Assembly: GCA_001447805.1 (NCBI GenBank)
Contig: CP013099.1
Location: 2,115,181-2,179,180, forward strand
Reading direction: 5' to 3'
Length of the DNA stretch: 64,000 nucleotides
Origin: Candidatus Tenderia electrophaga
GTDB taxonomy: Bacteria; Pseudomonadota; Gammaproteobacteria; Tenderiales; Tenderiaceae
Shown here piece by piece: positions 4,566 through 27,068 of this stretch. Both the position numbers and the translations under genes were made by a program. Position 1 is the stretch's first letter. The number at the start of each line of letters is the position of its first letter. Under the pieces are notes generated by a model. It searched no databases and had not been told where the DNA came from. It saw nothing but the letters and a program-made list of their open reading frames with translations.

Positions 4566-5381
4566 TTAATAGGCGGCTTCGGTTTTGGAGCGGGCGTCGC
4601 TGTCGGAGCCGTCATCCTCCGCCTCGGCCTGCGCCTGCTCGTCACGCGTTTCAGGCGGCTGATCCTCGGCCTGCGCTGCGTCGGTCTCGACGTCGGCCGT
4701 GTCCCGCTCGGCAGGATGTTCATCCGCGTCCGCCAAGGCCACCGGCTGCACTTGATCCGTATCGCTCCCCGCGTCATTCGCGGCGTGATCACCCGCGTCA
4801 TCTTGCGCCTGTTCGCCGAAATCGAATTCGCGCTCGATGCTGTCGATGCTGCGCAATTCGGCCAGGGGGGGCAGATCGCTCAGACTCTTGAGATTGAAAT
4901 AATCGAGAAAGCCCTTGGTCGTCCCGTACAGCGCCGGCTTGCCGGGCACGTCGCGATGACCGATGACACGAATCCATTCGCGCTCCAGGAGGGACTTGAT
5001 GATATTGCTGCTCACCGTCACGCCGCGCACATCCTCGATCTCGCTGCGGGTGATCGGCTGGCGGTAGGCGATCAGCGCCAGGGTTTCCAGGGTGGCGCGC
5101 GAGTATTTCGACGGCCGCTCTTCCCACAGGCGCGCGATCCAGGGCGCCAGGGCGACCTTGACCTGGTAGCGAAAGCCGCTGCTCACCTCCTTCAACTCCA
5201 CACCGCGCTCGCCACATTCTTCCTGCAGTTGCGCAATGGCGCTGCGGATCTCCTCGCGGCTGGGCTGGCCCTCGTCCAGGAACAGGCTCAGGATCTGATC
5301 GATACTCAGGGGCCGGCCGGCGGCCAGCAGCGCGCCTTCGATGATCTGTTTCAGTTTGTCAGGATTCGTGTGCATGGACAT
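4566..5381 (-). CDS. scpB: SMC-Scp complex subunit ScpB (segregation and condensation protein B) with long acidic C-terminal tail
   Basis: Two winged-helix ScpB domains in the first ~190 aa, followed by an ~80-aa D/E/A/Q-rich low-complexity tail. Confidence 0.9.
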   Translation of the reverse strand: MSMHTNPDKLKQIIEGALLAAGRPLSIDQILSLFLDEGQPSREEIRSAIAQLQEECGERGVELKEVSSGFRYQVKVALAPWIARLWEERPSKYSRATLETLALIAYRQPITRSEIEDVRGVTVSSNIIKSLLEREWIRVIGHRDVPGKPALYGTTKGFLDYFNLKSLSDLPPLAELRSIDSIEREFDFGEQAQDDAGDHAANDAGSDTDQVQPVALADADEHPAERDTADVETDAAQAEDQPPETRDEQAQAEAEDDGSDSDARSKTEAAY

Positions 5382-6228
5382 TCTGATGCGCCTTTACGTA
5401 GATAGGTCCGAAGGGTTCGGTCTGAATCATTTCGATCAGACTCTCCTTGATCAATTCGAGCACGGCCAGCAGGGTCACCACCACCCCCATGCGTCCTTCC
5501 TGGACCTTAAACAATTTACTGAACTCGATAAAGCTGTCGGGATTGATCATGTCCAACACCCCGGTCATGCGCTCACGCACCGACAGGGCCTCACGCTGGA
5601 TGTGATGGGAGGAAAACATGTCGGCGCGCCGCAGCACGTCCTGAAAGGCCAGCAACACCTCTTTCAACTCCACCTCGGGCACCGGCTTGACCACCTTCAG
5701 ATCGGGCGCCTCGGCGCTGCTCTCGAACACATCGCGGCCGAGGCGCGGCAGCTCGTCCATATCCTCGGCGGCCCGTTTATAGCGTTCGTATTCCTGCAGC
5801 CGGCGCACCAGTTCGGCACGCGGGTCTTCCTCGTCTTCCTCGGCAGCCGCGGGACGCGGCAGCAGCATGCGCGACTTGATTTCGGCCAGCATGGCGGCCA
5901 TCACCAGGTACTCGGCGGCCAGCTCGAAACGCATATCCTGCATCATGTCGATATAGCTCATGTACTGGCGCGTGATCTCGGCAATGGGGATATCCAGGAC
6001 GTCCAGGTTCTGACGCCGGATCATGTATAACAACAGGTCCAAGGGGCCTTCAAAGGCTTCCAGGAACACCTCCAGCGCGTCGGGGGGAATATAGAGATCC
6101 CGGGGCAGCTGGGTCAGGGCCTCGCCGTGGATCAGGGCGAAGGGAATCTCCTGCTGCAGGGCCGTTTCGGCGGGCGCATCATGCTCGCCGTGACCGGCCG
6201 CTGCTGCGCTGTCGTGTGTCTCGCTCAT
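5359..6228 (-). CDS. scpA: segregation and condensation protein A (ScpA, kleisin)
   Basis: ScpA family sequence (LEAFEGPLDLLLYMIRRQNLDVLDIPIAEIT...). Start set at Met (MSETHD) at 6228 giving ATGA overlap with the trpS stop. The upstream 71-aa extension lies inside trpS and is rejected. Confidence 0.85.
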   Translation of the reverse strand: MSETHDSAAAAGHGEHDAPAETALQQEIPFALIHGEALTQLPRDLYIPPDALEVFLEAFEGPLDLLLYMIRRQNLDVLDIPIAEITRQYMSYIDMMQDMRFELAAEYLVMAAMLAEIKSRMLLPRPAAAEEDEEDPRAELVRRLQEYERYKRAAEDMDELPRLGRDVFESSAEAPDLKVVKPVPEVELKEVLLAFQDVLRRADMFSSHHIQREALSVRERMTGVLDMINPDSFIEFSKLFKVQEGRMGVVVTLLAVLELIKESLIEMIQTEPFGPIYVKAHQNVHAHES

Positions 6229-8839: not shown

Positions 8840-9709
8840 TCATTCCCACAAGCGCCAGACGGGTTCGCAGCCCTGCGGCAGGGGCGGCAAGCGGCCCATG
8901 TGGCGCCAGGTTTGACTGGGGCCGTGATAATCGGACCCCAAGGAGGCATGCAGTTCATAGCGGCGCACATAATCGGCCAGGTTGCGGGTCATGTTGATGT
9001 CCTGGCTGCCCGAGATCACCTCCAGCGCCCGTCCCCCCACGGCCTTGAACGCCTCGATCAGGCGCCGCAGTTTGGTGGCGGACAGCTTATAGCGGCCGGG
9101 ATGGGCGATGACCGCCTCACCGCCGGCGGCGGTAATCCACTGCACCGCCGTCTCCAGACTGGTCCATTCGGTCTTCACATAGGCGGGCTTGCCGGTGCCG
9201 AGATAACGGTCGAAGGCCTCCTGCAGGGTCTTGACGCGGCCGCAGGCATGCAGATGGCGGGCGAAGTGGGTCCGGCTCAGGATCTGGCCGTTGGCATAGC
9301 ACCTGGCCCCTTCCAGACTGCCGTCGAAGCCGAGCTTGTCCAAACGCCGCGCCATCTCGGTGGCGCGGGCCTCGCGCTGTCGCCGCAGTCCCGCCAGGCC
9401 TTGTTGCAGAGTGACATTTGCGACATCGAAATTCAGTCCGACGATGTGCAACAGATACGTGTCCCAAGTGACCGAGATTTCGACACCGCTGACAAAACCC
9501 AAGCCATGCGCGCGCGCCGCGCCGGCCGCCTCGGCGAGGCCGTCGGTAACATCATGGTCGGTGAGCGCCAACACCTCCACCCCGTTTTGCACGGCGTATT
9601 CCACCAGCGCCGTCGGCGAGAGTTCGCCGTCGGAGGCGGTGGAATGACAGTGCAGATCATATTTCGTGTATCTATCCGTTCCCATGAATCTCGCGGCATG
9701 CCTCGACAA
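8840..9709 (-). CDS. trpH: PHP-domain 3',5'-nucleoside bisphosphate phosphatase (TrpH/YciV family)
   Basis: PHP motifs (DLHCHSTASDG, LALTDHD). Alternative start at 9685 (MGTDRY...) is equally plausible; neither has a strong SD. Confidence 0.85.
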   Translation of the reverse strand: MSRHAARFMGTDRYTKYDLHCHSTASDGELSPTALVEYAVQNGVEVLALTDHDVTDGLAEAAGAARAHGLGFVSGVEISVTWDTYLLHIVGLNFDVANVTLQQGLAGLRRQREARATEMARRLDKLGFDGSLEGARCYANGQILSRTHFARHLHACGRVKTLQEAFDRYLGTGKPAYVKTEWTSLETAVQWITAAGGEAVIAHPGRYKLSATKLRRLIEAFKAVGGRALEVISGSQDINMTRNLADYVRRYELHASLGSDYHGPSQTWRHMGRLPPLPQGCEPVWRLWE

Positions 9710-9782
9710 AGCGGCCTATGATAGAATCTTTGACCTCATTTAGCGAGACCCCTTACTGCCCCCTTGAGATGTTGAGGACTTC

Positions 9783-10388
9783 ATGAAATTCCTGTTTGAT
9801 TTTTTCCCCATTCTTTTATTTTTCATTGCCTATAAAGCCTACGACATCTATGTCGCCACGGCCGTGGCCATCGTCGCCTCCTTCATCCAAGTGGGCTGGC
9901 TCTGGCTGCAGCATCGGCGCGTCGAGAAGATGCATGTCATCACGCTGTTGCTGATCGTGGTACTGGGCGGCGCCACCCTGGCCTTGCAAGACCCGACCTT
10001 CATCATGTGGAAGCCATCCCTGGTCAACTGGGCCTTCGCGCTGGTGTTCGTCGGCAGTCACTTCATCGGCAAAAAGACCATCGTGCAACGCATGATGGAG
10101 AAAAACGTAGCGCTGCCCGGGCACATCTGGCCGCGCCTGAATATCGCCTGGTCGGTGTTCTTCGTATTTATCGGCTTTCTCAATCTCTATGTGGCCTACA
10201 ATTTCGACGAGGCCACCTGGGTCAACTTCAAACTCTTCGGCATGATCGGCCTGACCTTCGTCTTCATCATCGCCCAGGCCTTTTTCATCGGCCGTTACAT
10301 GAAGGAGCCGGAATCGGCCAACCCGCCGGAATCCGTAAATTCCCCAGAATCCGTAAAATCCCCCGTAAAATCCAAGGAGCAACCTTGA
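9783..10388 (+). CDS. yciB: intracellular septation protein A (YciB)
   Basis: [18 protein letters not shown]... characteristic YciB N-terminus, 5 TM, 201 aa. Conserved yciB–yciI arrangement. Confidence 0.9.
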
Positions 10389-10687
10389 TGCTGTATGCCA
10401 TCATCGGCCGCGATAAGGACAACAGCCTGGAACAACGTCTGGCGGCACGCCCCGAGCATCTGCAACGACTGGAGGCCCTGAAAGGGCAAGGCCGCCTGCT
10501 GTTGGCCGGCCCCTTTCCCGCCATCGACAGCGAGGACCCCGGTCCGGCGGGCTTCAGCGGCAGCCTGATCGTGGCCGAGTTCGAATCCCTCGAGGCCGCG
10601 CAGCAATGGGCCGATCAGGACCCCTATGTTGCAGCCGGGGTGTACCAGAGTGTTACCATTAGGCCTTTCAAAAAGGTATTGCCTTAA
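10388..10687 (+). CDS. yciI: YciI family protein
   Basis: 99 aa; start ATG overlaps yciB stop (TGATG). Track ORF 10007..10687 is an out-of-frame upstream extension and is rejected. Confidence 0.8.
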
Positions 10688-13941: not shown

Positions 13942-15249
13942 TTAAAGCATGCCTGTCAACAGGGTGGCGATGCCAAGAAAGGAGAAAAACCCGACCACGT
14001 CGGTGACGGTGGTCAAAATAATGGATGAGGATTGTGCCGGATCCTGCCCCAGAGAACTGAGGATGACCGGGATAATGACGCCGGAAAACGCGGCAGCCGT
14101 CATGGAAATGATCATCGAGAAGGTGATCACCAGTCCCAAGCCATACGACCCGCTCCAGAAATAGACCCCGACAGCTGTAGTCAGCGCCACCGCAATCCCA
14201 TTGATAAAGGCGGCGCCGATCTCCTTGCGCGTCACGCGGCGCCAGTGACTGGTGCCGATCTCGCGCAACGCCAGTCCGCGCATGGTCACCGCCAGGGCCT
14301 GGGCGCCGGTATTGCCCGACTGCCCCGCCACCACCGGCAGCAACACTGCCAAGGCGGTAAAGCTGGCGATGGTACTCTCGAAAATACCCACCACACTGGC
14401 GGCCAAAAAGGCGGTGAGCAGATTGATCTGCAGCCAAGGCAGACGCTTGCGCACCACGAACCCGATACTGGACAGGGCACGTTCGTCCTTGCTGGCGCCG
14501 ACCATGGTCTGGATATCGGCGCTGGCCTCTTCCTGCACCGCCGTCACCAGGGCGTCCTGGCGGATAATCCCCATTAAGCGACCGTCGATATCCACCACCG
14601 GTAGATCCGTCATCTTGTGCTGTTCCATCTGTTCCACCACCTCGTCGCGGCTGGCGGTGGCCAGCACCCAGGCGGGCACCGCCTTGGCCAAGGCCTGCAA
14701 GGGGCCGGTGCCGTCGGCCAGCGACAAGGCCTGGATATCCACCATCTGCTTGACCACACCGTCGGCGTCGGTAAGAAACAACTGGCGGCTGAATTTGGGC
14801 TTGTGACGTTGCAACAGACGCAACGCTTCGCGCACCGTCAATTCGCCGCGCAAAGACAAAAAGCGCGGATCCATGACCCCACCGGCGCTGTCCGCAGGAT
14901 ATTCCATCAAACGCTGCAGTTCGTGACGGCGATCAGTATCCAGCAAGCGGAGATAGTCATCACGCGCCGCGTGCGGCAGGCGCAGCAACAATCTGGCCGA
15001 GGCTTGCGGCTCACTGCGCCCCAACAAGGTCCGAACAAAGCCCTCAGGCAACTGCAGCAGCGCCTCTTCCTGAGCTCCCAGAGGCAAGTGCTGCCAAAGC
15101 TGCAAGGCAATGGTCACCGGGACCGACTGCAATATGCCGCCGAGTTCATGCGCCCGGACCAAGGCAAGCTCGCGGGCCGCCTCCGCGGGATAGTGATTGA
15201 GATACTCGCGATTCAACGCCGCTGCCGCATGTTCAGACGCCGTTGTCAT
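13942..15249 (-). CDS. mgtE: magnesium transporter MgtE (full length: MgtE-N, tandem CBS, 5-TM domain)
   Basis: Start at MTTASEHAAAAL (15249); 48-aa upstream extension rejected. TM domain with GNTGAQ-type motif (AGQSGNTGAQALAV). Confidence 0.9.
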   Translation of the reverse strand: MTTASEHAAAALNREYLNHYPAEAARELALVRAHELGGILQSVPVTIALQLWQHLPLGAQEEALLQLPEGFVRTLLGRSEPQASARLLLRLPHAARDDYLRLLDTDRRHELQRLMEYPADSAGGVMDPRFLSLRGELTVREALRLLQRHKPKFSRQLFLTDADGVVKQMVDIQALSLADGTGPLQALAKAVPAWVLATASRDEVVEQMEQHKMTDLPVVDIDGRLMGIIRQDALVTAVQEEASADIQTMVGASKDERALSSIGFVVRKRLPWLQINLLTAFLAASVVGIFESTIASFTALAVLLPVVAGQSGNTGAQALAVTMRGLALREIGTSHWRRVTRKEIGAAFINGIAVALTTAVGVYFWSGSYGLGLVITFSMIISMTAAAFSGVIIPVILSSLGQDPAQSSSIILTTVTDVVGFFSFLGIATLLTGML

Positions 15250-16081
15250 GGGTATCCCTTTTCGCTCGTTGAGTGTCGAACAGCGTGTCGAGCGTGGCCG
15301 TGAGGGCCACCGCCAGCGATAACCAAAGCCACTCCAAAAATGTCGTGGTCGCTGCTCCGGTGTCGGCCGTGACCTGAATTGGCACCGCATCATGCAAGCT
15401 GGAGAAATCGATTTCCCCCACCAGTCTGGTTTTACTGTCGATGACCGGGAGATACTGGTGATGACGCCAGACCGGCATATCCACTACTTCCTTCACGCTG
15501 GCGCGCACCGGAATGCCGGGCACGCTCCTGAGGGCCAATTGGGCGATGGGCGCCTGGGCATCGGCGCGCAGCAACTGGACCAGGCTCAGCACGCCCTTCA
15601 GCCTGAGCGCCTCATCATTGACATAAATGTGATGCTGGCTCAATTGATGCGTCTGCCTGATGCGCTTCAATGCCTCCGTCACCGAAATCGTGGCGGGGAG
15701 CACGAATAAATAACTGCGCATGCGGCTACCCACACTGCCGTCCGGATAGCGCATCAAACGCGTCAGGCGTCTTTGCGTTGATTGTGGCACGCGCTCCAGG
15801 CGCGCCTGCGCCGCATCCGGCGGCATGGCGCGCAGCAGTGTGGCGGCCGTGTCCCTGTCGCAGGCATCCAGCAAGGCGGCGGCCGCGTCCGCGGGCATGG
15901 CGGCAAGATAGGCGGCGCCATGCGCTGTCACCATGGCGCTCAACACGGTGACGGCGGGGTGCAGCTCCAGCTCGCTTAGGTAATCGGCGACCACCTCCGG
16001 GCCGAGACGCTCCAGCACCCGCGCCGCGGCCTGGGGATGGCGGCTGACAAATGCGCGACTGAGTTGAAACTCACTCTTCAT
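15233..16081 (-). CDS. soluble MgtE-N-terminal-domain plus CBS-domain protein (no TM domain)
   Basis: 282 aa. The N-terminal half resembles the MgtE_N helical domain; the C-terminal half is a CBS pair (ISVTEALKRIRQ... / LPVIDSKTRLVGEI). Overlaps mgtE start by 17 nt and the upstream channel gene by 11 nt. Confidence 0.7.
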   Translation of the reverse strand: MKSEFQLSRAFVSRHPQAAARVLERLGPEVVADYLSELELHPAVTVLSAMVTAHGAAYLAAMPADAAAALLDACDRDTAATLLRAMPPDAAQARLERVPQSTQRRLTRLMRYPDGSVGSRMRSYLFVLPATISVTEALKRIRQTHQLSQHHIYVNDEALRLKGVLSLVQLLRADAQAPIAQLALRSVPGIPVRASVKEVVDMPVWRHHQYLPVIDSKTRLVGEIDFSSLHDAVPIQVTADTGAATTTFLEWLWLSLAVALTATLDTLFDTQRAKRDTHDNGV

Positions 16082-17018
16082 CGTCGGGCACTGAATCCAC
16101 CAGGGTCGAGAGATGGCGGCTGAACAGATTGGCGGGCAGGCTCACCTCGCCCTGATCACTGTCGAGGATCACCATGGTGGCGGTGATGGACAGCAGCCTG
16201 CCCTGCACGTCCAGTACGCGGATCATATCGCCGGTATGATAGCGTCGCCGCACTTGATGCGCCGCCAATACATTGGCGACATAATCCCGCGCCCCGATGC
16301 CGAAGGCCAAGGCGATGGCACTCAGCACCGCGGCCAGGGTAATGCCGAACACGGTGGCGAGAAAACTGACATCGATACCGAGCTGGGCCAGCGCCAGCAC
16401 CACCGTCAATACGATAATGACGCCCTGCATCACCTGCGCCAGTAGCCTGGCCTGGGCGACGCCGGCGGCGAACATGGCCGACTCCACCAGACGCCGGCAC
16501 AAAGACGCCAGAAATACGCCGACCGCAATGATCAAAGCGCTGAGCAGGATCACGGGCAGATAGCCGAGCCCCAGCCCGATCCATGCGGTGATGAACTCCA
16601 ATTCTAGGATATGGGCGGCGACGGCGAAGAAAAATATCAGCACCAGCCAAAACACCAACAGTCCCAGCAGGCGCGTCGGCGGATGCGCACTTTGCAGGGT
16701 CTTCAGACCGGGCACATGGGTCAAGCGATGCCAGAGATGGTCCAAGCCTTCGGCCAGCCGCACCACAAAACGCCGCAGCAGCCGCGCCAGCACCCAGCCC
16801 GCCATCAATACCACAAGCGCCGCCAGAAGCTGGGGCAGCCACGCCAGCACCGCATTCAGCATTTCCACCAGACTGTGGGTAAGCGTGTCCAGCCAGTTAT
16901 TCTCGTTCATAATAGAAGGATCTATTGTTGCGCCTTTAGCTATTGTAGACATTTTATGGATCGATGAAGTCGTCGCGACGCTCCGCCACACGGTGCTGTA
17001 ACACCTCGGCCAATTCAT
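16071..17018 (-). CDS. small MscS-like mechanosensitive ion channel family protein
   Basis: 4 predicted TM helices and an MscS-like pore-proximal segment (GDMIRVLDVQGRLLSITATMVILD). Start uncertain: ATG 17018, 16952 (MSTIAKG) or 16910 (MNENNW). Confidence 0.65.
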   Translation of the reverse strand: MNWPRCYSTVWRSVATTSSIHKMSTIAKGATIDPSIMNENNWLDTLTHSLVEMLNAVLAWLPQLLAALVVLMAGWVLARLLRRFVVRLAEGLDHLWHRLTHVPGLKTLQSAHPPTRLLGLLVFWLVLIFFFAVAAHILELEFITAWIGLGLGYLPVILLSALIIAVGVFLASLCRRLVESAMFAAGVAQARLLAQVMQGVIIVLTVVLALAQLGIDVSFLATVFGITLAAVLSAIALAFGIGARDYVANVLAAHQVRRRYHTGDMIRVLDVQGRLLSITATMVILDSDQGEVSLPANLFSRHLSTLVDSVPDDEE

Positions 17019-17054: not shown

Positions 17055-17288
17055 ATGACAAAAACCAAGACCATGCAACAAACAAAATTCATACTCGGCG
17101 TCGCCTTATTGGTGCTGCTGGTGATATTCACGGCGCAGAATACTGAAATAGTCACCATCACCTTCTTTTTTTGGCAACTCTCCATCTCGCGTGCCCTGAT
17201 GGTGTTTTTCGTACTCGCCATCGGCGTCGTCATCGGCCTGCTGGTCGGCACCTGGCAGGCCACGCACAAGACTAAGCGCGGTCAATGA
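17055..17288 (+). CDS. LapA/DUF1049 family small inner-membrane protein
   Basis: 77 aa with two TM helices and K/R-rich ends, typical of lipopolysaccharide assembly protein A-like proteins. Convergent 7-nt overlap with the DUF155 gene. Confidence 0.6.
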   Translation: MTKTKTMQQTKFILGVALLVLLVIFTAQNTEIVTITFFFWQLSISRALMVFFVLAIGVVIGLLVGTWQATHKTKRGQ

Positions 17289-18085
17289 GCCAAGATAAAA
17301 TCGTTCACCAGAAAGATGATTATCTCGACCGCGATGAGCCAGATGATGATCCACTCCAGGGTGGATGAATGCTGGTGTTTCTGATCGTCGGCCAGCATCT
17401 GGAACAATTCGTGGATGGTCTCAAGCTTGAGGGATAATATCTCGGTACGTTGTTTCAACTCCAAATAATGCGCCCCGATTTGATACACCGGCTCCAGTTC
17501 GGGGTATTCCCAGAAAAATTCCGGCGTATCCAGCAACTCATACTTGAGAATGATATCGCTCTTGGTCAAAAACAGCTTGCCGCGCATCCTGGCGGTCTGC
17601 CGCCGTGACAACAGGGTGGAGCCGGTGTCGGCCAACTTGCGCGGAATGGCGGCGGTCTCTTCGATGGTCTGCTGGGCCTGTCTCTCAAACATGGCCAGTT
17701 TCACCGACTGAGACAGGGCATGAGAGAAGGCCAACAGGGTCATGGTGTCGTTATCGACGAGCTCGATATGCTCATGGGTGAAACGGTTTTTCTCACAACC
17801 ATGGATAAAGGGATAATGTTCCGTTTCCCGTTCCGGGTAGGCGCGCAGCGCAAACAGCTGCAGCTGCTCGTCAATGCGCTCCACCACATCCTTCCTGACA
17901 TTCCAGTACACCGCGACGCCGAAGGGAAAAATGGCGCAACTGCCCTGTTCGACCTCGAGATAGATCACATCGCGGTAGCAGGCGCACCGTCCCGTGGTCA
18001 ACAGGGCTCCGGACAAGCCGAGGAAGTTGAAGGACTCGGCGTAGCACACCGCCTGACATGACAAGTATTCCATGTTCTCGGACAT
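17282..18085 (-). CDS. DUF155/RMD1-like protein with C-terminal TM helix (tentative family assignment)
   Basis: 267 aa, soluble domain then C-terminal hydrophobic helix (LEWIIIWLIAVEIIIFLV). Last gene of the apparent GNAT-C39 / ATP-grasp / DUF155 operon, 32 nt after the ATP-grasp stop. Confidence 0.6.
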   Translation of the reverse strand: MSENMEYLSCQAVCYAESFNFLGLSGALLTTGRCACYRDVIYLEVEQGSCAIFPFGVAVYWNVRKDVVERIDEQLQLFALRAYPERETEHYPFIHGCEKNRFTHEHIELVDNDTMTLLAFSHALSQSVKLAMFERQAQQTIEETAAIPRKLADTGSTLLSRRQTARMRGKLFLTKSDIILKYELLDTPEFFWEYPELEPVYQIGAHYLELKQRTEILSLKLETIHELFQMLADDQKHQHSSTLEWIIIWLIAVEIIIFLVNDFILAH

Positions 18086-18117
18086 CAGTTGCCTCGTTCA
18101 GATGGTCACCGCGATTG

Positions 18118-19584
18118 TTATTTCTTGCCATCCAGGCGGCGCAAAAAGTCGGCCATGACCAAGTTGAATAACTCCTCACCCAGATAGCGGTCCTCGACAC
18201 CCATATCCAGATTCGGATTGTCATTGACCTCGATCACGTAGACACCCCGATCACTTTGTTTGACGTCGACGCCGTAGAGCCCGTCGCCGATCAACCCCGC
18301 CGCCTTCACGGCGATCTCCACCACCGCGCGCGGCGCCTCGGCGACGGCCCAGGTCTTGGCGTCGCCTTCCTGAAAAGCGCCGCTGCTGCCGTGTTTGACG
18401 ATCTGCCAGTGTTTGCGGTACATGAAATACTGGCAGGCGAAAATGGGTTTGCGATTGAGCACGCCGATACGCCAATCGTACTCGGTATAAAGATACTCCT
18501 GCGCCAGAATCAGTTCGGAACTCTCGAACAGGCGCTCAGCGATGGCATGGAACTCGTCACGGCTTTCGGCCTTGAACACCCCTTGCGAAAAGGCACTGTC
18601 CGGCACCTTCAGCACCATGGGATAGCCGATGCTCCGTTCGGTGGCCTCCAGATCGCGCCTGCCCAGAATGGCGCTCTTAGGCGTGGCGATATGGTTGGCG
18701 CGCAGCAATTCCGCCAGATACACCTTGTTGGTGCAGCGCAGTATGGAGGACGGATCGTCGATCACGACCATGCCCTCACTCTCGGCGCGTTTGGCGAAAC
18801 GATAGGTATAGTGGCTGATGCGGGTGGTGTCGCGGATGAACAAGGCATCATATTCCGCCAACCGGGCGTAATCCTTGCGCTCGATCAGCTCGGCATTGAT
18901 GCCCAGCTTGCGCGCGGCCTTGATAAAGGCCTTGAGGGCGCGCGGATTGGACGGCGGCAAAGGGTCCTTGGGATCGTGCAGAATGGCCAGGTCGTAACGA
19001 CCGGGCAGCTTCTGCTTACGGGTACGCCAGCGTTTGGACAGATAGGCGCTGAGTGCGGCACTGAAGTAGGCCTTTTCCTCAGCTTTGAGCTTATGCAGGG
19101 CAAACGGCCGGATGGTGGTAATGCGCCATTTATCCAGGCTTTTGAAATTGATCTGCAACAAAGGATAAGGAAATATCTCGAACAGTTTGCGCGCCAGGCC
19201 GTTAAAGGCCGCGTCCTGACAAGCGCCGAACATGACGCGCAGTTCGAACTCGCCCACACCCTGGGTGACGTGTTGCTTCTTGAAGGCCTTTTCTACGTCT
19301 TCATCGAGGATCACAGCATCGAGGCTGTACAGCGCCTTGTCGCTGAGATCGAGCATGCTCTTCACCGAGGGGATGACACGGTGCCGACGCGCCTCGGCCA
19401 GCAGGGAACAATAATAACCGACCCTGGAATAACGGTAGTCCTTGCACAGGTTGATCACCTGCACGTTCTTGAGCGCGAAATACTCCGCCGAGGTCAAATA
19501 CTCGTCAATATCCACCACCGGACATTCGATCTCGCTATAGGTCCAGCGTTTGACGTCTTCAACCACTATTATCTGGGTCACCAT
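18118..19584 (-). CDS. RimK-like ATP-grasp amidoligase with ~200-aa N-terminal extension (RLAN-type)
   Basis: 488 aa. C-terminal ~290 aa show RimK-type ATP-grasp motifs (...VLKVPDSAFSQGV..., ...YVIEVNDNPN...). N-terminal domain is unrelated to classic RimK. Confidence 0.85.
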   Translation of the reverse strand: MVTQIIVVEDVKRWTYSEIECPVVDIDEYLTSAEYFALKNVQVINLCKDYRYSRVGYYCSLLAEARRHRVIPSVKSMLDLSDKALYSLDAVILDEDVEKAFKKQHVTQGVGEFELRVMFGACQDAAFNGLARKLFEIFPYPLLQINFKSLDKWRITTIRPFALHKLKAEEKAYFSAALSAYLSKRWRTRKQKLPGRYDLAILHDPKDPLPPSNPRALKAFIKAARKLGINAELIERKDYARLAEYDALFIRDTTRISHYTYRFAKRAESEGMVVIDDPSSILRCTNKVYLAELLRANHIATPKSAILGRRDLEATERSIGYPMVLKVPDSAFSQGVFKAESRDEFHAIAERLFESSELILAQEYLYTEYDWRIGVLNRKPIFACQYFMYRKHWQIVKHGSSGAFQEGDAKTWAVAEAPRAVVEIAVKAAGLIGDGLYGVDVKQSDRGVYVIEVNDNPNLDMGVEDRYLGEELFNLVMADFLRRLDGKK

Positions 19585-19609
19585 GGATGTATGTATTACC
19601 TCGTCTGTG

Positions 19610-20701
19610 TCATGGTGGATACAAGATCAACGCGGCGCGCTGACCACTCTTGCCGTACTGTGCCATACGCTCGAACTCCTTGTGTAGAATGGGCATGTTG
19701 ACGCAATCGGTGACCGTCTTGCCCTTCTCCTCATCGATGTAGGGGTCATGAAAATAGATGTAACGGTCGTCGTGACCGGTGACCACCACCCAATGGGGAA
19801 ACTTTTCCTTGTAAATACGATAGGAACTGATCAGGATCACCGGCACGGCACCGCTGTCCAGGGCCTCGATAATACCGACGAGCGTGAGGCGGTGATAACT
19901 GAGCTTGACGGGCAGGTGGCCGATCTCTTCCAGAAAATCCTCGTCCACCAAGCGGATCACCTCTTTTTTTTCCTCGCTGCGCACGGAATCGACGAACAAG
20001 GTCTCGCCTTCTTTGACGTAGATCTCGACGCGAAAGCCGCGGTGATGCGCCGCCAGCGCCAAACCGTAGGGACCGCAGCCGCCGTGACCGGAGGTCATAT
20101 AGATGGTGGTGGATTCACGCCACAGCCGCAGTTCCAAATGGCGGCTCATCTCGGTGTGATCATCCAGGGCCTTCATGGCCATCATCAGCGCCGCCGGGCC
20201 GCAGGTAAAGTCCAGCGTCTGCTGATAATAGGGCACCGAGGTCATATTCGGCGGAATATTCTGCACCAGACGTTTTTCCAGCCGCACAGCGTCGGACAGA
20301 TCATCGTAATACTGCATATAGCGGCCAAACTGTTGGTAGCCCATACTCTCGAACAACCTCAGCGAGGCCTTGTTATCCACCCGGATCTCCAGGCGCATAT
20401 AAATGCAATCATGTGCCAGCGCGGCGTCTTCGGCGGCCGCCACCAGACGACGCCCGAGACCGCCCTGGCGCGCCTCTTGGGTCACGGCAATGGAATAGAG
20501 CCGCGCCAGCGAGGTGCCGCGATGGAACAACACCATGGCGTAACCCACCAGCCGCCCGTCCTGCTCCGCCACCAGGGTGTCGGCATGGCCCTTGGTGAGC
20601 ATGTAACGGAAATTGCGGCGGCTGAGCCGATCGCTGTCGAAACAGACCTTTTCGATCTCGACCAGTTGGGGAATATCGCCAAGGGTGGCGGGGCGAATCA
20701 T
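19610..20701 (-). CDS. bifunctional GNAT N-acetyltransferase / C39-like papain-fold cysteine peptidase fusion
   Basis: N-terminal ~150 aa GNAT (RimI-like; QEARQGGLGRRL acetyl-CoA motif). C-terminal ~200 aa with C39-like catalytic Cys (QQTLDFTCGPAALMMA) and His (HWVVVTGHDD). 25-nt gap to the ATP-grasp gene. Confidence 0.8.
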   Translation of the reverse strand: MIRPATLGDIPQLVEIEKVCFDSDRLSRRNFRYMLTKGHADTLVAEQDGRLVGYAMVLFHRGTSLARLYSIAVTQEARQGGLGRRLVAAAEDAALAHDCIYMRLEIRVDNKASLRLFESMGYQQFGRYMQYYDDLSDAVRLEKRLVQNIPPNMTSVPYYQQTLDFTCGPAALMMAMKALDDHTEMSRHLELRLWRESTTIYMTSGHGGCGPYGLALAAHHRGFRVEIYVKEGETLFVDSVRSEEKKEVIRLVDEDFLEEIGHLPVKLSYHRLTLVGIIEALDSGAVPVILISSYRIYKEKFPHWVVVTGHDDRYIYFHDPYIDEEKGKTVTDCVNMPILHKEFERMAQYGKSGQRAALILYPP

Positions 20702-20797
20702 GGGCTAACTCCGGAAACGAGAAAGGGACGGCGGCGAATAATTAGCACAGTCCATAGCGCCACTCCAGGAAAATTTCGCTCATCTCCGGCACGGCAT

Positions 20798-21700
20798 TCA
20801 GGCGGCGGGCGGCCAGACCCGGTGCATTAGGTTGTTCTTGCCCGACTTTTTGATCTGGTACATCAGGTCGTCCACCGCCTTGATCATATCCCGCGCGCTG
20901 TGCATGGGGCGGATAAAACTCACCGCCCCGATACTGAACGTGACCGGCCAGCCCCGCGCCGCCATGGCCGCCAAGCCCTGGCGGTTCAGTTTGTCGATCA
21001 CCACGCCCGCCGCCGCCTTGTCGCTGAGCGGTAATAATACGGCGAATTCGTCACCTCCCAGCCGCGCCACCAGGTCACTGGCGCGGACATGCTGCTGCAG
21101 GCTATCCGCCACGGTTTCGAGCAGTTCATCGCCGCCGTCATGGCCGAAATGATCGTTGACATACTTGAAGCCATCCAGATCGATGTAAACGATTGTAAAC
21201 GGCTCAAGCTGGCGCTCGAACCTGAGCCGCTCGCGCTCGACTTGTTCAACGAAAAAGCGTCGATTGGCCAGCCCCGTCAGGGCGTCGGTGTCGGCCAGGC
21301 TCTGCTCCTGCTCAAGGGTCTTGCGCACCGTCAACAGCAAGCGCAGGATGATGAGAAAAAAGCCGAGACGCGCCAGTGTATTCCAAACCGGGATCAGTTC
21401 ATGACTGTATTGGTTGCCTTCGGCCAGATCGCACAACACCCACACCGCCGCCGACACCAAGGCCACCGTCAGCCCGACCCGCCCACCACCGTACCAACCG
21501 GCCAACATGATGGGCGCGGTATAGAACACGGCGAAGGAAAGCTCGGTGCCGCTGATGTAGTCCACCCCACCAAGCACCAGTACCAGGCCAAACCCGAGCG
21601 CCAACACGGTCGGCTTGGCCACAGACTCAAGACGTTTATGAAATACCTTCAGCATGCTAAACACATTCCCGCTGGCGTTCAACCAAGTCCACGACGGCAC
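20798..21700 (-). CDS. membrane-anchored diguanylate cyclase (GGDEF domain)
   Basis: N-terminal multi-TM region, then GGDEF domain with intact RLGGDEF active-site motif. Start may be 21655 (MLKVFHK). 96 nt upstream of the GNAT-C39 gene on the same strand. Confidence 0.85.
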   Translation of the reverse strand: MPSWTWLNASGNVFSMLKVFHKRLESVAKPTVLALGFGLVLVLGGVDYISGTELSFAVFYTAPIMLAGWYGGGRVGLTVALVSAAVWVLCDLAEGNQYSHELIPVWNTLARLGFFLIILRLLLTVRKTLEQEQSLADTDALTGLANRRFFVEQVERERLRFERQLEPFTIVYIDLDGFKYVNDHFGHDGGDELLETVADSLQQHVRASDLVARLGGDEFAVLLPLSDKAAAGVVIDKLNRQGLAAMAARGWPVTFSIGAVSFIRPMHSARDMIKAVDDLMYQIKKSGKNNLMHRVWPPAA

Positions 21701-21768: not shown

Positions 21769-22842
21769 ATGCCTTATTTTACTAAAACCTATCATCCGCC
21801 GGGGACGCCGCCCGGCACCCTGGTGGAACGTGCGGCCGGCGCAGCCGGCGCGTTGAGCATCCGCCTGGTCGATTACACCGATCAAGACTACCTGGATAAG
21901 GTGGTCGATCATGCCGATGAATGCCGTCCCTACCTGGAACGGGACAGTATCACCTGGATCCACTTTCAGGGCGCAATCCAGGCACAGGCACTGCGCAACA
22001 TCGGCGAGCTGTTCGATTTGCATGCACTGGCCATGGAGGATGTCATGAACAGCGGGCAACGTCCCAAGGTGGATGAATACGAAGATCAGCTGTTCATCGT
22101 CATGGCCATGCTGGACGTTCAGGCGCCGCACATGAAGGTCGACCAGGTATCGGTTTTTATCGGTCCGAACTACATCATCAGTTTCCACAACGGCGTCCAT
22201 GACCCCTTCGATCCGCTGCGCAAGCGGCTGAAAAAACGCAGCGGCCGGATTCGTTCACTCAAGGCCGATTATCTGCTCTATGGCATTATCGATCTGATCA
22301 TCGACCACGGCTTTCCGGTATTGGAACGCTTCGGCGAGGAAATCGAGACCCTCGAAGACACATTGCTGGCGGCGCCGACCCGCTCCACCCTGGGCGACAT
22401 TCACCGGTTGCGGCGCGAGCTGCTGTTGCTCAGGCGCATGCTGTGGCCGCACCGGGATATAATCAACTACCTGTCGCGCGGCGACAACGCCCTGATCGGC
22501 GCAGGCACCTTGATATATCTGCGCGACTGTTACGATCATTCGATCCAGATCATGGACCTGCTGGAAAACTACCGCGATATGGCCGCCAGCATGCACGATG
22601 TCTATCTCTCTTCGGCCAGTTATCGACTCAATGACGTCATGCGCGTACTGACCATCATCGCCACCATCTTTATTCCCCTGACCTTCATCGCTGGTATCTA
22701 CGGCATGAACTTCGAAAACCCGGACAGCCCCTGGGCCATGCCCGAGCTGGGCTGGTACTACGGCTACCCGCTGGTACTGGGCGGCATGCTGCTGATCGTA
22801 TTCGGCATGTTGTTTTATTTTCGCCGCAAGGCCTGGCTCTGA
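21769..22842 (+). CDS. corA: magnesium/cobalt transporter CorA
   Basis: 357 aa with C-terminal two TM and YGMNF (GMN) motif. Confidence 0.92.
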   Translation: MPYFTKTYHPPGTPPGTLVERAAGAAGALSIRLVDYTDQDYLDKVVDHADECRPYLERDSITWIHFQGAIQAQALRNIGELFDLHALAMEDVMNSGQRPKVDEYEDQLFIVMAMLDVQAPHMKVDQVSVFIGPNYIISFHNGVHDPFDPLRKRLKKRSGRIRSLKADYLLYGIIDLIIDHGFPVLERFGEEIETLEDTLLAAPTRSTLGDIHRLRRELLLLRRMLWPHRDIINYLSRGDNALIGAGTLIYLRDCYDHSIQIMDLLENYRDMAASMHDVYLSSASYRLNDVMRVLTIIATIFIPLTFIAGIYGMNFENPDSPWAMPELGWYYGYPLVLGGMLLIVFGMLFYFRRKAWL

Positions 22843-22894
22843 TTGACCGAATCTGTCAGTTTATTGCTATTATCCGTTGCCATAAGGAGAAGGT

Positions 22895-23701
22895 ATGGAT
22901 CCGGATACATCACAAGCACCACACTGGTGGGGCGAATACACCATCGCCGATACCAAAGGCCTACGCTGCCATATCGGGCCATTAGACCTGCTGCTACGCA
23001 ACCTGCATGAGGAATGGCAAATCGCCTACGATCGCAGCTCAGGCGACGAGGATAAACACAGCGTCTGCCAAATCAGCGAATCGGATCTGAGTCTCGAACA
23101 TTTCACCAACCATTCGCGTTACATCCTGCACGATGACTCGGGCAAAGTGTATATCAACCCGCGCTTGGCGGACCGGCCCATCGTATCCCGCCCCTGGTCG
23201 CCATTTCACCTCAGCGCGGGTCAGGAAACCACACTTTACGTCAGCTCGCCCCTGTGGATCGAAATCACGGTGGGGCACCAACGCCGCACGCTGGAGGAGA
23301 TCGCCATCCTGCGGCCGTCTGATACTTGGTTCGGCGCCTCCACGCAAGAGGGTGAGCTTTGCTACGCCTCGCGCACCAGTTGCCGTCTGCGCCTCGATGA
23401 ATTGCCCTGGCGCCCGCATCGCGCCCTTACGCCGGTGGTCATCCGTAATCGCGCCGACACCACATTATTACTGGAACGGCTCAGCCTGCCCGTGCCCCTG
23501 TTACCCCTGTTCGCCGCGCCGGACGGACGCCTGTGGACCCCGCGCGTCACCCTGACCCGCAGCGATGACGGCGACATGGCGGCGCTCAAGATCGACAAAG
23601 AGGCACCGGTGGAAGTCGACGCGGCGACGCTCATCCACACCCCCCGCACCAACGCCGGCACGGGCACCCTGGTGCGCGCCTTCAATGCCCTGTTTAGCTA
23701 A
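22895..23701 (+). CDS. conserved hypothetical protein (no recognisable domain)
   Basis: 268 aa ORF with strong SD (AAGGAGAAGGT-ATG), soluble, no TM or signal peptide. Located between corA and mscS. Confidence 0.55.
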   Translation: MDPDTSQAPHWWGEYTIADTKGLRCHIGPLDLLLRNLHEEWQIAYDRSSGDEDKHSVCQISESDLSLEHFTNHSRYILHDDSGKVYINPRLADRPIVSRPWSPFHLSAGQETTLYVSSPLWIEITVGHQRRTLEEIAILRPSDTWFGASTQEGELCYASRTSCRLRLDELPWRPHRALTPVVIRNRADTTLLLERLSLPVPLLPLFAAPDGRLWTPRVTLTRSDDGDMAALKIDKEAPVEVDAATLIHTPRTNAGTGTLVRAFNALFS

Positions 23702-23737
23702 GACCGGAAGATCCGCCCGCATGCAGAGAACGCAATC

Positions 23738-24607
23738 ATGACCGAGTTCTGGAACGAAATCACCACCTATCTCAGCAGCGAAAAGCTCTGGCTCGTGGTG
23801 CGCGCCACCATCCTGCTCATTATCGGTCTGGCGGTCGCCAAACTGGTCAGCAGTACCCTGGCCCGAGTCAGTCATAAAAAACTCGATAGCCATCGGGTGA
23901 TGCTGCTGCGGCGCGGTAGTTATTATCTTATTTTGGGCCTGTTTGCAGTCTCGGCCCTGCACGAACTGGGGTTCAACCTGAGTGTGCTGCTGGGCGCCGC
24001 GGGGATACTCACGGTCGCCATCGGCTTTGCCTCACAGACCTCCGCATCCAATCTTATCAGTGGCCTGTTCCTGGTGGCGGAACGCCCCTTTACGGTGGGC
24101 GATATTATCCGTGTCGGCACCACCTCGGGGGAGGTGCTGTCCATCGACCTGCTGTCGGTCAAACTGCGCACATTCGATAATCTGTTCGTGCGTATCCCCA
24201 ACGAGTCCCTGATCAAGTCCGAGGTCACCACCTTGACCCGCTTTCCCATCCGCCGGATCGATGTGGCGGTCGGCGTGGCCTACAAGGAGGACATCAACCA
24301 AGTCCGCGAGTTGCTGGAGGCGGTGGCGGATAAAAACCCGCTCTGTCTCGAGGAACCCAAACCGCTGTATATCTTTCAGGGCTTTGGCGAATCCTCACTC
24401 AACCTGCAATTTTCGGTCTGGGCCAAACGGGAAAATTTCCTGGAGCTCAAGAACCTCATACACCAAGAGATCAAAGAGGCCTTTGATGCCCACGGTATCG
24501 AGATCCCCTTCCCCCATCGCACCCTGTATACGGGCAGTGTCACCACACCCTTTCCGCTCAGGATGAGCAGCAGCGATTCGGCACAGGCCGACCAGGATAG
24601 GGCTTGA
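23738..24607 (+). CDS. mechanosensitive ion channel family protein (MscS-type)
   Basis: 3 TM plus MscS beta-domain (ISGLFLVAERPFTVGDIIRVG...GEVLSIDLLSVKLRTFDNLFVRIPN). Confidence 0.9.
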   Translation: MTEFWNEITTYLSSEKLWLVVRATILLIIGLAVAKLVSSTLARVSHKKLDSHRVMLLRRGSYYLILGLFAVSALHELGFNLSVLLGAAGILTVAIGFASQTSASNLISGLFLVAERPFTVGDIIRVGTTSGEVLSIDLLSVKLRTFDNLFVRIPNESLIKSEVTTLTRFPIRRIDVAVGVAYKEDINQVRELLEAVADKNPLCLEEPKPLYIFQGFGESSLNLQFSVWAKRENFLELKNLIHQEIKEAFDAHGIEIPFPHRTLYTGSVTTPFPLRMSSSDSAQADQDRA

Positions 24608-24730
24608 GCGGGCCTTAACCCGCCAGCGCGGACATTGCGAAATCTCAAAAAAACCGGTCACCAGATGTGCTAGGGTTTTAGGCATGTTGTCTCATCGCAC
24701 CCTTCAAGAACAATCAAGGTGACTCACAAG

Positions 24731-24949
24731 ATGGCAGAAGCTTCCGACTCGACCCCGTTGATGTTAAAGGCGCTCTATCCCCGCTCGCTCAAATACCTGA
24801 CCGACAATCTGCAGGCCTTGGTGCGTGGGCGCCTGTGGCTAAAGGTGATCATCGTCAAACAGGCGGCCTTGCGCACCACCACCGGCGAGGATGTACTCAC
24901 CGAGGCGCAATTGAGCGGGGCGCATAAGACCGAAGTCGGTCAAGCCTAA
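24731..24949 (+). CDS. small hypothetical protein upstream of trkH
   Basis: 72 aa from ATG 24731 preceded by AAGGTGA. Ends 15 nt before trkH. No recognisable family; may not be a real gene. Confidence 0.3.
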   Translation: MAEASDSTPLMLKALYPRSLKYLTDNLQALVRGRLWLKVIIVKQAALRTTTGEDVLTEAQLSGAHKTEVGQA

Positions 24950-24963
24950 GGGCGGGCGTCCCG

Positions 24964-26421
24964 ATGCAGGAGGCGGTCTCCACGCTCTACCACGCCGTGC
25001 GCCTAAAGGTGGTCGCCAAGTATCTCGGTCAATTGGCACTGATGCTGGCACTGCTGACCCTGGTGCCCCTGCTGGTGTCCCTGTTCTACGGCGAACACTT
25101 CTACAGTCTACGCTACGCCGGCGTGATCCTAGCCCTGCTGGTGCTGGGCATCCCCGGGCTCAAGTTGGCCGAACCGAGCGACATTCACACCAACGAGGCC
25201 CTGGTCATCACCGCCCTGGCCTTTGTGCTGTCGCCCCTGCTGATCAGTTGGCCCATGATGGCGGCCGGCCTGCCCTTTATCGATGCCTGGTTCGAGGCGG
25301 TCTCGGGCATTACCACCACCGGGCTCACGACGGTGCAGGCCTTCAGCGACAAACCCATGACCTTCCTCTTCGCCCGCGCCTGGATACAATGGTATGGCGG
25401 CCTGGGTATCGTCATCCTGTCGGTGGCCCTGTTGATGGGTCACCATAATGCCATGAAACGCCTGCTCGGTCCCGAAGGCGGTCAGAGCATGATCACCACC
25501 ACACGCCACTATGCGCGCCGCGTGTTGGTAGTCTATGTCCTCCTTAGCCTAGTGGGCGTGATCGTGGTCTGGTTGCTGCTCCAGGATGGTTTCCTGGCTA
25601 TCACCCACGTCATGACCGCCATCTCCACCGCCGGCTATTCACCACTGGACAACAGCCTGGCCGGTATCGACGACTGGGGCGCCCGGGCGGCGATCATGGT
25701 ACTGTGCTTCTGCGGCGCCGTGCCCTTCGTGCTCTACTATCGACTGTTTAAGGGCAACTGGCGCGGTGTGGTCTTCGACAGTGAATTCCAGCTCCTGCTG
25801 CTGCTCACCCTGGTGGTCAGCGCAGCATTGAGCCTCATCCTGGCCCAACAGTTCGAGTTCAGCTATCGCGAGGCGCTGGGGCACGGTTTCCTGCTCGGCA
25901 CGTCGACCCAGACCAGCACCGGTTTCAGTTCACTCGATGTCGGCGAACTGGACCCCTTGGCCAAGGGCATATTGATCATCGCCATGTTCATCGGCGGAGA
26001 CATGGGCTCCACGGCCGGCGGCATCAAGATCCTCAGGCTGTTGATCCTGGCGCGTCTGATCCAACTCATCATCCAGCGCTATACCCTGCCCGCCCACGCC
26101 GTGATCCAGCCGCGCCTCGACAATCGCAACCTGGAGCACGATGAGATCCATCAGGCCCTGGTGCTGATCCTGCTATTTATCATGGTGAATGTGCTCTCCT
26201 GGCTTGTCTTCCTGGCCTATGGGTACCCACCGTTGGATGCCCTTTTCGAGGTCGTTTCGGCCACCGGCACGGTGGGGCTGTCCACCGGCATCACCCATCC
26301 CGACCTGGAACCCAGCTTGAAAATGGTGCTGATCTTGGACATGCTGCTGGGGCGACTGGAAATCATCGCCCTGCTCATCGTATTGTATTACCGTACCTGG
26401 ATTGGAAAGAGGATGGCCTAA
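24964..26421 (+). CDS. trkH: TrkH family potassium uptake protein
   Basis: 485 aa polytopic protein with repeated selectivity-filter-like motifs (TTTGLT, STAGYS, TQTSTGFS, TGTVGLSTG). Confidence 0.92.
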   Translation: MQEAVSTLYHAVRLKVVAKYLGQLALMLALLTLVPLLVSLFYGEHFYSLRYAGVILALLVLGIPGLKLAEPSDIHTNEALVITALAFVLSPLLISWPMMAAGLPFIDAWFEAVSGITTTGLTTVQAFSDKPMTFLFARAWIQWYGGLGIVILSVALLMGHHNAMKRLLGPEGGQSMITTTRHYARRVLVVYVLLSLVGVIVVWLLLQDGFLAITHVMTAISTAGYSPLDNSLAGIDDWGARAAIMVLCFCGAVPFVLYYRLFKGNWRGVVFDSEFQLLLLLTLVVSAALSLILAQQFEFSYREALGHGFLLGTSTQTSTGFSSLDVGELDPLAKGILIIAMFIGGDMGSTAGGIKILRLLILARLIQLIIQRYTLPAHAVIQPRLDNRNLEHDEIHQALVLILLFIMVNVLSWLVFLAYGYPPLDALFEVVSATGTVGLSTGITHPDLEPSLKMVLILDMLLGRLEIIALLIVLYYRTWIGKRMA

Positions 26422-26423
26422 TC

Positions 26424-27068
26424 ATGCGCGCCGTATTCGTGGGAGCCTCATCGTTTGCCCTTATGACCGCCAATCTGCTGCTCAAGCGCGGTCACGAGGT
26501 GGTGATTATCGAAAAGGACAAGGAATGCATTGCCGAGCTGAGCGAGACGCTGGACTGCGGTTTTCTCCACGGGGACGGCAGCAAACCGGCCCTGCAGAAA
26601 GAGGCCGACCCGGACAGCACAGAGATCTTGTTCTGCCTCACCGGCGATGATCGTACCAACATCCTGGCCAGCCTGGTGGGACATTCACTGGGATTTAAAC
26701 GGGTCGTAACCCGCATCGAAGACCGCGAGCTCGAGCATATCTGCCTGGAGCTGGGGCTGGAAGACACCATTATCCCGGCCCGCACTATCGGCCGTTTTCT
26801 CGCCGACATGTTCGAGGGCCAGGACCTGCTGGAACTCTCCACCATGATCCGCGACGAGGCTCGGGTCTTCTCATTCGTGTTGCCGGAGGACTTCGAAGGC
26901 GGCGTCGAGGCCTTGGAGTTGCCCGCAGACGCCCGCCTGGTCTGTATCTATCGTCAGGACAAGCTCATCATCGCCAAGGACGATATGGACCTGCAGGCCG
27001 ATGACGAGGTGGTCATTCTCGCGCACCGCGACTGTTTGCCGAGCTTGCAGGAGCAATGGAACAGTTAG
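26424..27068 (+). CDS. trkA: Trk system NAD-binding subunit (TrkA-N plus TrkA-C; short KtrA-like form)
   Basis: Rossmann fold with GASSFA glycine motif, then TrkA_C domain; 214 aa, 3 nt after trkH. Confidence 0.85.
   Translation: MRAVFVGASSFALMTANLLLKRGHEVVIIEKDKECIAELSETLDCGFLHGDGSKPALQKEADPDSTEILFCLTGDDRTNILASLVGHSLGFKRVVTRIEDRELEHICLELGLEDTIIPARTIGRFLADMFEGQDLLELSTMIRDEARVFSFVLPEDFEGGVEALELPADARLVCIYRQDKLIIAKDDMDLQADDEVVILAHRDCLPSLQEQWNS

Follow-up and report, generated by a model that had tools for sequence, protein, structure and literature searches.

The window analysed in this study is a stretch of 64,000 nucleotides (nt) of the genome of Candidatus Tenderia electrophaga (contig CP013099.1, positions 2,115,181 to 2,179,180). 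The analysis showed that two genes on its minus strand form a conserved unit, namely an acetyltransferase(-peptidase) gene and a RimK-like ligase gene. The first (core gene 1, 19610–20701) encodes a GNAT domain fused to a DUF3335 domain, and the second (core gene 2, 18118–19584) encodes a ligase of 488 amino acids (aa) with an RLAN domain ahead of its RimK-like part. The unit is flanked on the same strand by a gene for a GGDEF diguanylate cyclase (20798–21700) and by an accessory gene of the DUF155/RMD1 family (17282–18085). All four genes were assigned from the list of open reading frames (ORFs) and Pfam.

Conservation and Gene Order of the Core Module

The ligase family was scanned with one genome per species, which gave 590 relatives, and 80 loci were retained for the neighbourhood counts. 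These loci belong to the Gamma-, Alpha- and Betaproteobacteria, Desulfobulbaceae, Bacteroidota, Fidelibacterota and Bdellovibrionota, and approximately 28 of them are from Pseudomonas species. The homologues of the ligase form more than 8000 clusters. The best 120 are 60–92% identical and are labelled merely "RimK family protein". Between phyla, identity within the ligase family is 46–63%, which is a very strong conservation.

The GNAT gene adjoins the ligase gene in 78 of the 80 loci. The arrangement of the window, with the GNAT-peptidase fusion immediately upstream of the ligase and in the same direction, was found in 33 loci, and the fusion is divergent from the ligase in 31. The DUF3335 peptidase domain is present on the adjoining GNAT in 64 loci. 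It is missing in 14, where a GNAT without the peptidase domain lies beside the ligase, and two loci have a ligase without a nearby GNAT. The spacing between the two core genes in the co-directional loci is mostly 17–110 nt. Clustering of the flanking genes and a Pfam census (204 flanking genes) revealed no third universal neighbour and no precursor gene, in agreement with a preliminary description of the locus, which had noticed no obvious substrate gene nearby.

The preliminary description had read the ligase, the GNAT and the Cys peptidase as a set with a make-and-trim chemistry. The three do recur as a conserved set (GNAT adjoining in 78 loci, peptidase domain in 64). Trimming, however, is not part of the minimum: since the peptidase domain is missing in 14 of the 80 loci, the minimal unit consists of the GNAT and the ligase, and the Cys peptidase, though common, is dispensable. 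The minimal chemistry is acetylation plus ligation. The wider claim of a conserved four-gene cassette was not borne out, as the GGDEF gene is absent from the module in all 80 loci and DUF155 is present at only 2. A literature search on the two Pfam families, on proteins named "RimK family protein" and on RimK together with CorA found no functional or experimental study of the module, so the earlier statement that it has no recognised product or target stands.

The four ORFs were reproduced with the coordinates, strand and spacing previously given, and Pfam agreed with every domain identity proposed for them. The intergenic distances are 96 nt between the GGDEF and GNAT-DUF3335 genes, 25 nt between the GNAT-DUF3335 and ligase genes, and 32 nt between the ligase and DUF155 genes. 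A GGAG/GAGG box is located approximately 10–14 nt ahead of the ATG in the GNAT-DUF3335, ligase and DUF155 genes. Promoter and terminator scans of the locus gave counts at chance level, which leaves the spacing and these ribosome-binding boxes as the evidence for an operon.

The Acetyltransferase-Peptidase Protein

Judged by its domain matches, the protein of core gene 1 is a predicted RimI-like GNAT (aa 1–150) followed by a papain-fold DUF3335 cysteine peptidase (aa 156–360). Acetyltransf_1 (PF00583) matched residues 13–122 (E = 1e-17), and DUF3335, the "Peptidase_C39 like" family (PF11814), matched residues 156–360 (E = 5e-89, 298 bits). The GNAT domain contains the acetyl-CoA motif R-x-x-G-x-G/A in the form RQGGLGRRL. 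In the DUF3335 domain, Cys167 (TCGP motif) and His303 (HW motif) are conserved at a level of at least 98% among 65 homologues. The match and the conserved Cys/His pair confirm the C39-like peptidase that had been claimed for this half of the protein.

The nearest matches of the GNAT are RimI and the Naa10/30 protein N-terminal acetyltransferases. Its score is below the NCBIfam cutoff for RimI (TIGR01575, 76.8 vs. 86.4 bits). A separate GNAT of 151 aa, encoded at 44986–45441 on the minus strand, passes this equivalog cutoff (129.4 vs. 86.4 bits), and its gene likely encodes the housekeeping RimI (S18 acetyltransferase).

The DUF3335 domain has the papain fold with a Cys/His pair in common with the C39 bacteriocin-processing domains, and weak C39 and C39_2 matches were obtained. 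It differs from them in that the PF03412 score (17.8) is below the cutoff of 22, in that it is fused to a GNAT, and in that no ABC transporter or double-glycine precursor was linked to the module in the examined neighbourhoods. The search of the DUF3335 profile against the PDB found no close solved relative. The best matches were BtrH_N-like acyltransferase-like proteins (E = 0.0024), with a double-glycine protease behind them (E = 0.1); these matches are weak and cover approximately 45 residues.

The order of the PDB matches fits an explanation in which the papain-fold domain is a transferase, like phytochelatin synthase or BtrH, and polymerises the units made by the ligase by transpeptidation. 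The product would be a polyanion of the cyanophycin or phytochelatin kind, serving as a buffer for Mg2+ or other cations, and the CorA-like, CorA, MgtE and CNNM genes in the neighbourhoods and the two invariant glutamates in the DUF155 helix (see below) would suit it. We consider transpeptidation improbable. The short, weak PDB matches and the loss of the peptidase domain in 14 loci speak against it, Pfam found in the ligase no Mur-ligase-type domain, which is the mark of cyanophycin synthetase, and the links to cation transporters occur in few lineages only.

The RLAN-RimK-like Ligase

The ligase is divided into the RLAN domain (aa 1–188, 19021–19584, minus strand), assigned from Pfam and the predicted fold, and the catalytic RimK-like ATP-grasp part (aa ~197–488, 18118–18996, minus strand), assigned from TIGR00768, PDB matches and the alignment with RimK. 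Pfam RLAN (PF14401) matched residues 27–176 (E = 8e-47, 159 bits) and the RimK ATP-grasp family (PF08443) residues 286–461 (E = 7e-12), while the rimK_fam model TIGR00768 matched residues 216–461. Lys326, Glu363, Arg372 and Glu452-x-Asn454 align with E. coli RimK and are conserved at a level of at least 98%. RimK was the best PDB sequence match (5zct/4iwx, E of approximately 4e-9), and LysX was also matched. The ligase is nevertheless far below the RimK cutoffs (PRK10446, 42.7 vs. 331; TIGR00768, 81.4 vs. 143.4), below the LysX cutoff as well, and below that of the Ngg equivalog TIGR03103 (29.2 vs. 569). RimK shares with it the ATP-grasp subfamily and the catalytic residues, but lacks the RLAN domain of approximately 190 aa. 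The partners also differ, being GNAT-peptidase here and, reportedly, RimA/RimB for RimK in Pseudomonas.

The first 200 or so residues of the ligase had been described as a non-RimK domain. They are indeed an extra domain; it is known to Pfam by the name RLAN and has no assigned function, but its predicted fold is ATP-grasp-like. The AlphaFold2 model of residues 1–205, built with an alignment of 60 sequences, was confident, with a mean pLDDT (predicted local distance difference test) of 83.4. The best Foldseek matches of the model were the ATP-grasp proteins ArgX/LysX and PsnB (E of approximately 8e-4 to 1e-3, probability 1.0). The hhalign alignment of RLAN to the catalytic part of the same protein is colinear and matches KWRI with DWRI; its probability is 1.7%, which is not significant, and proof from sequence that RLAN arose by internal duplication thus failed. 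In this alignment RLAN lacks the Lys and Glu of the ATP-binding positions, and it ends ahead of the Mg-binding Glu-x-Asn region. The model suggests that RLAN is probably a truncated, catalytically dead ATP-grasp half, which we infer to be a built-in pseudo-subunit or a substrate-holding platform. A likeness to the N domain of cyanophycin synthetase was also considered and rejected, as that domain is absent among the listed Foldseek fold matches.

Predicted Product of the Module

In some loci, further hydrolase-like genes accompany the two core genes. An AstE/AspA-type gene abuts the ligase gene in two loci of the Bacteriovoracaceae/Halobacteriovoraceae (L064 and L068). The L064 copy passes the NCBIfam aspartoacylase cutoff (237 vs. 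180 bits), and its L068 relative has a Pfam AstE/AspA match only. A DUF2817 gene, with a faint AstE/AspA match, lies between both core genes in L054, L056, L057, L077, L085 and L087. In L083, the locus of a 77%-identical relative, an extra gene (9461–10513) between the ligase and DUF155 genes encodes a weakly M42-like protein of 350 aa (Pfam M42, E = 0.0012, below the cutoff; TET1, E = 0.03). HxDxxG, DN and EEE motifs are present in this protein and were read as M42-like, and L092 contains at 5336–5524 a 63-aa match to its N-terminus with 73% identity.

We speculate, as the explanation that we tentatively favour, that the module makes and turns over an N-acetylated acidic α-peptide, like N-acetyl-aspartyl-glutamate (NAAG) or oligo-glutamate, in a cytoplasmic make-and-break cycle. 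The GNAT would N-acetylate Asp, Glu or a short acidic peptide at its N-terminus, and the ligase, with ATP, would extend the C-terminal carboxylate by α-linked Glu/Asp, giving a product like NAAG or a capped oligo-α-glutamate. The Cys peptidase would hydrolyse or re-prime the product, and other genomes supplement the module with an aspartoacylase, DUF2817 or M42-like metallopeptidase. The probable role of RLAN is that of a non-catalytic dimer-mimic or substrate-holding platform. DUF155 in the window, and an atypical CorA-like protein in Pseudomonas, may link the acidic product to the membrane or to cation homeostasis.

This explanation is based on the minimal unit of acetyltransferase plus ligase with no precursor gene, on the aspartoacylase, DUF2817 and M42-type enzymes as partners, and on known parallels. 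In mammals, the acetyltransferase NAT8L, the RimK-like ligases RIMKLA/B and aspartoacylase make and break N-acetylaspartate (NAA) and NAAG. Bacterial Ngg is a GNAT fused to an ATP-grasp domain and makes the osmolyte N-acetylglutaminylglutamine amide (NAGGN). Compared by enzyme class only, the module has the same trio as the mammalian NAA/NAAG cycle, with the aspartoacylase in L064, and adds the Cys peptidase and the RLAN domain. A further parallel, quoted in a later paper, is the in vitro synthesis of poly-α-glutamate from free Glu by E. coli RimK (Kino 2011, cited in PMC4431377). The intact catalytic residues, the fold of RLAN, the recurrent link to DUF155, the CorA-like gene of Pseudomonas, the ion-homeostasis genes around the module in the window and the separate RimI gene at 44986–45441 were also counted in favour of this explanation.

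Several points weigh against an N-acetylated acidic peptide. Substrate specificity is not readable from sequence, and the product is a prediction. The GNAT is closest to acetyltransferases of protein N-termini (RimI and Naa10/30), and the ligase to RimK and LysX, two enzymes that modify the C-termini of proteins. M14-type peptidases trim protein tails too. The aspartoacylase link is confined to two related loci and the cation-transporter links to few lineages, and the 46–63% identity between phyla would equally fit a macromolecular partner.

The main rival is protein-tail modification. In this reading a housekeeping protein would receive a C-terminal Glu/Asp tail from the ligase, in the manner of RimK with S6 and LysX with LysW. 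The GNAT-peptidase would process and acetylate an N-terminus, the metallopeptidases would remove the tail, and DUF155 would be a membrane adaptor or target, perhaps connected to the ribosome. The nearest matches of both core enzymes (RimI and Naa-type for the GNAT, RimK and LysX/ArgX for the ligase) agree with it, as does the fact that C39-type enzymes are peptide-processing endopeptidases. Outside the module, DUF155 lies directly upstream of the rRNA methyltransferase gene rlmJ (18 loci) and accompanies a MATCAP/QEGLA carboxypeptidase (7 loci), and the eukaryotic DUF155 proteins RMND1 and Mrx10 are tied to mitochondrial translation. Even so, protein-tail modification seems somewhat less likely to us. 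Both enzymes remain below the NCBIfam cutoffs for the protein-modifying families (RimK 42.7 vs. 331, RimI 76.8 vs. 86.4), and no conserved candidate substrate gene is found nearby. The C-terminus of DUF155 would be outside the cytoplasm, because it comes after the hydrophobic helix, and the aspartoacylase partner suits small N-acetyl amino acids better. The N-acetylated acidic peptide is kept here as the favoured, tentative product.

The GGDEF Gene

The GGDEF protein matched PF00990 at residues 136–290 (E = 9e-41, 139.8 bits). It has approximately four N-terminal hydrophobic helices and an intact LGGDEF motif, with an RxxD site (RASD) five residues before it. Its start is probably Met16 (nt 21655), because the homology to a 92%-identical relative begins there. 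The window encodes another GGDEF protein, which is larger, at 62295–63893 on the plus strand.

The preliminary description had linked the locus to cyclic di-GMP (c-di-GMP). As an explanation this means a c-di-GMP-controlled operon of four genes, with the ligase regulated by the GGDEF cyclase. In its favour, the GGDEF gene lies 96 nt upstream in the same direction, GGDEF genes occur within a few kilobases in L021, L024 and L078 and beside DUF155 in approximately five metagenomic loci, and the activity of Pseudomonas RimK is said to respond to c-di-GMP, a finding ascribed to Little et al. in 2016. Such control is very improbable and largely refuted by the comparison of loci. The GGDEF gene is absent from the module in all 80 loci. 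Its orthologue in L083, the 77%-identical relative, is beside CorA, with an opposite-strand LysR gene between it and the module. In the 92%-identical relative (L081), a deletion of approximately 690 nt, equivalent to 20780–21469 of the window, has cut the GGDEF gene to its first 65 codons (L081 6151–6369), yet the remaining genes are undamaged and in synteny. Such genomes have many GGDEF genes, and to find one nearby now and then is expected. The gene is a bystander, with CorA as its conserved neighbour, and the c-di-GMP link is withdrawn.

The DUF155 Partner

The DUF155 protein matched PF02582 at residues 51–217 (E = 7e-46, 157 bits vs. a cutoff of 27). The alignment of homologues showed a single C-terminal hydrophobic helix at approximately residues 243–262. 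This helix has two invariant glutamates ten residues apart (E244 and E254) and an invariant Trp, which is unusual for a plain anchor. The protein has the same Pfam domain and C-terminal membrane helix as RMND1, Rmd1 and Mrx10, but it is bacterial, and adjacency to a peptide-ligase module is found in bacteria only. We know of no organism in which a molecular function of the DUF155 family has been established.

Among the 80 ligase loci, DUF155 was found only at L020 and L021, where it is upstream of the GNAT gene and overlaps its start. Of 80 metagenomic DUF155 loci sampled, 11 have the RLAN ligase beside DUF155, in at least five gene orders; by a rough estimate, chance adjacency of a single-copy gene would occur in approximately 0.1% of cases. 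Methylotuvimicrobium buryatense and gammaproteobacterium HdN1 have DUF155 orthologues of approximately 50% identity directly after the GNAT-peptidase gene, in the order ligase/DUF2817/GNAT-peptidase/DUF155. In L085, L087, L020 and L021, DUF155 adjoins the module in gene orders that differ from that of the window, and DUF155 occurs without the module in L088–L091. The pairs HdN1 vs. L091 and the window vs. L088 look as if the module had been gained or lost beside DUF155. DUF155 is a recurrent, optional partner of the module, and its association with these genes, as first described, is upheld.

Other genes near DUF155 were recorded. In L091 (3539–6004), thymidine-phosphorylase-like and PRPP-synthetase-like genes directly precede DUF155, and in HdN1 (L087, 1–2052) the same pair precedes the three module genes, which are followed by DUF155. 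DUF155 has another conserved context (L098, L102, L109, L111–L120 and other metagenomic loci) in which rlmJ is directly downstream in 18 loci and a 140-aa protein, with an apparent signal peptide by sequence, is encoded directly upstream in 24 loci. The MATCAP/QEGLA-family carboxypeptidase gene lies two genes upstream of DUF155 in its 7 loci, and 4 loci have upstream a gene for a DUF6524 membrane protein. PAS-PAS-GGDEF genes lie directly beside DUF155 in approximately 5 of the 80 metagenomic loci (L101, L132, L152, L153 and L161); this adjacency could be due to chance or shared lineage. In the window, a plus-strand gene at approximately 17083–17298, which converges on DUF155, encodes a 71-aa LapA-domain membrane protein (Pfam E = 5e-11), and an 82-aa ORF on the minus strand (17106–17354) is probably a shadow of this gene.

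DUF155 was also compared with the CorA fold. This relationship was rejected, with an hhalign probability of 0.3% and no matches in the PDB profile search. The single-sequence AlphaFold2 model of the protein was poor (pLDDT 41).

One conjecture concerns the whole family, namely that DUF155/RMD1 proteins are membrane partners or targets of enzymes that add and remove C-terminal amino-acid tails, tied to the ribosome or to Mg2+ homeostasis. The enzymes may be the RimK-like ligase module in the window and the MATCAP-family carboxypeptidases elsewhere. The adjoining rlmJ, the nearby CorA, MgtE and CNNM genes, and the two invariant glutamates of the helix point in this direction, though we regard the conjecture as a long shot.

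Ion-Homeostasis Surroundings

A CorA-superfamily gene follows the ligase after 26 nt in 19 Pseudomonas loci (e.g., L032 9487–10410). The protein has GGMS in place of the canonical CorA pore motif YGMN, and it scores 72 bits against a CorA cutoff of 201. Being far below the cutoff, with GMS for GMN, it is perhaps not a Mg2+ transporter. The module of the window lies amid genes of ion homeostasis (13942–17018 and 21769–27068), which encode MgtE, a soluble MgtE_N+CBS protein, a mechanosensitive-channel-helix protein, CorA, MscS, TrkH and TrkA; a weak DUF432 match is also located in this island. The same gene set flanks the module in L081. A general enrichment of ion transporters around the module was considered and rejected, as it was seen only in the lineage of the window and in Pseudomonas.

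The MgtE ORF (13942–15393) overlaps the upstream MgtE_N/CBS ORF (15233–16081), both on the minus strand, by 161 nt. The true start of MgtE is probably further downstream than listed, because the overlap in L081 is only 17 nt. A second CorA-superfamily gene of the window (58750–59730, minus strand) passes the ZntB model (310 vs. 292 bits).

Relation to Known Systems and Significance

Operons of RLAN-RimK-like and GNAT/papain-like peptidase genes were reportedly predicted by comparative genomics by Iyer, Abhiman, Burroughs and Aravind in Mol Biosyst in 2009. The core pair presumably matches these operons, and RLAN (PF14401) and DUF3335 (PF11814) are, we assume, their two distinctive domains. As far as the Pfam names allow the comparison, the two-domain architectures and the adjacency are the same as in the window, whereas DUF155, the Pseudomonas CorA-like partner and the ATP-grasp-like fold of RLAN are not known to be part of the 2009 prediction. 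The locus is a typical member of a predicted, uncharacterised system, in a version that adds DUF155.

In glutathionylspermidine synthetase/amidase, a ligase that forms an amide bond with ATP is joined to a Cys amidase of the papain superfamily, which can break this bond. It likewise pairs a ligase with a papain-superfamily Cys enzyme, but its domains are of other families, its CHAP amidase is fused to the ligase itself, and it has no GNAT.

To our knowledge, the DUF155 link, the CorA-like partner in Pseudomonas, the ATP-grasp-like fold of RLAN and the status of the GGDEF gene as a bystander are new. The core pair is widespread, in several phyla and throughout Pseudomonas, and strongly conserved, yet no experimental report of its product was found. 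The two-gene unit of acetylation and ligation leads to a concrete metabolite hypothesis, an N-acetyl acidic peptide, which is testable in tractable Pseudomonas. The fold of RLAN suggests a built-in pseudo-subunit in the ligase. The recurrent adjacency of DUF155 to the module gives one of the few hints at the function of the DUF155/RMND1 family. If true, the conjecture on tail chemistry would be the first mechanistic lead for this family, which includes the human mitochondrial-disease gene RMND1.

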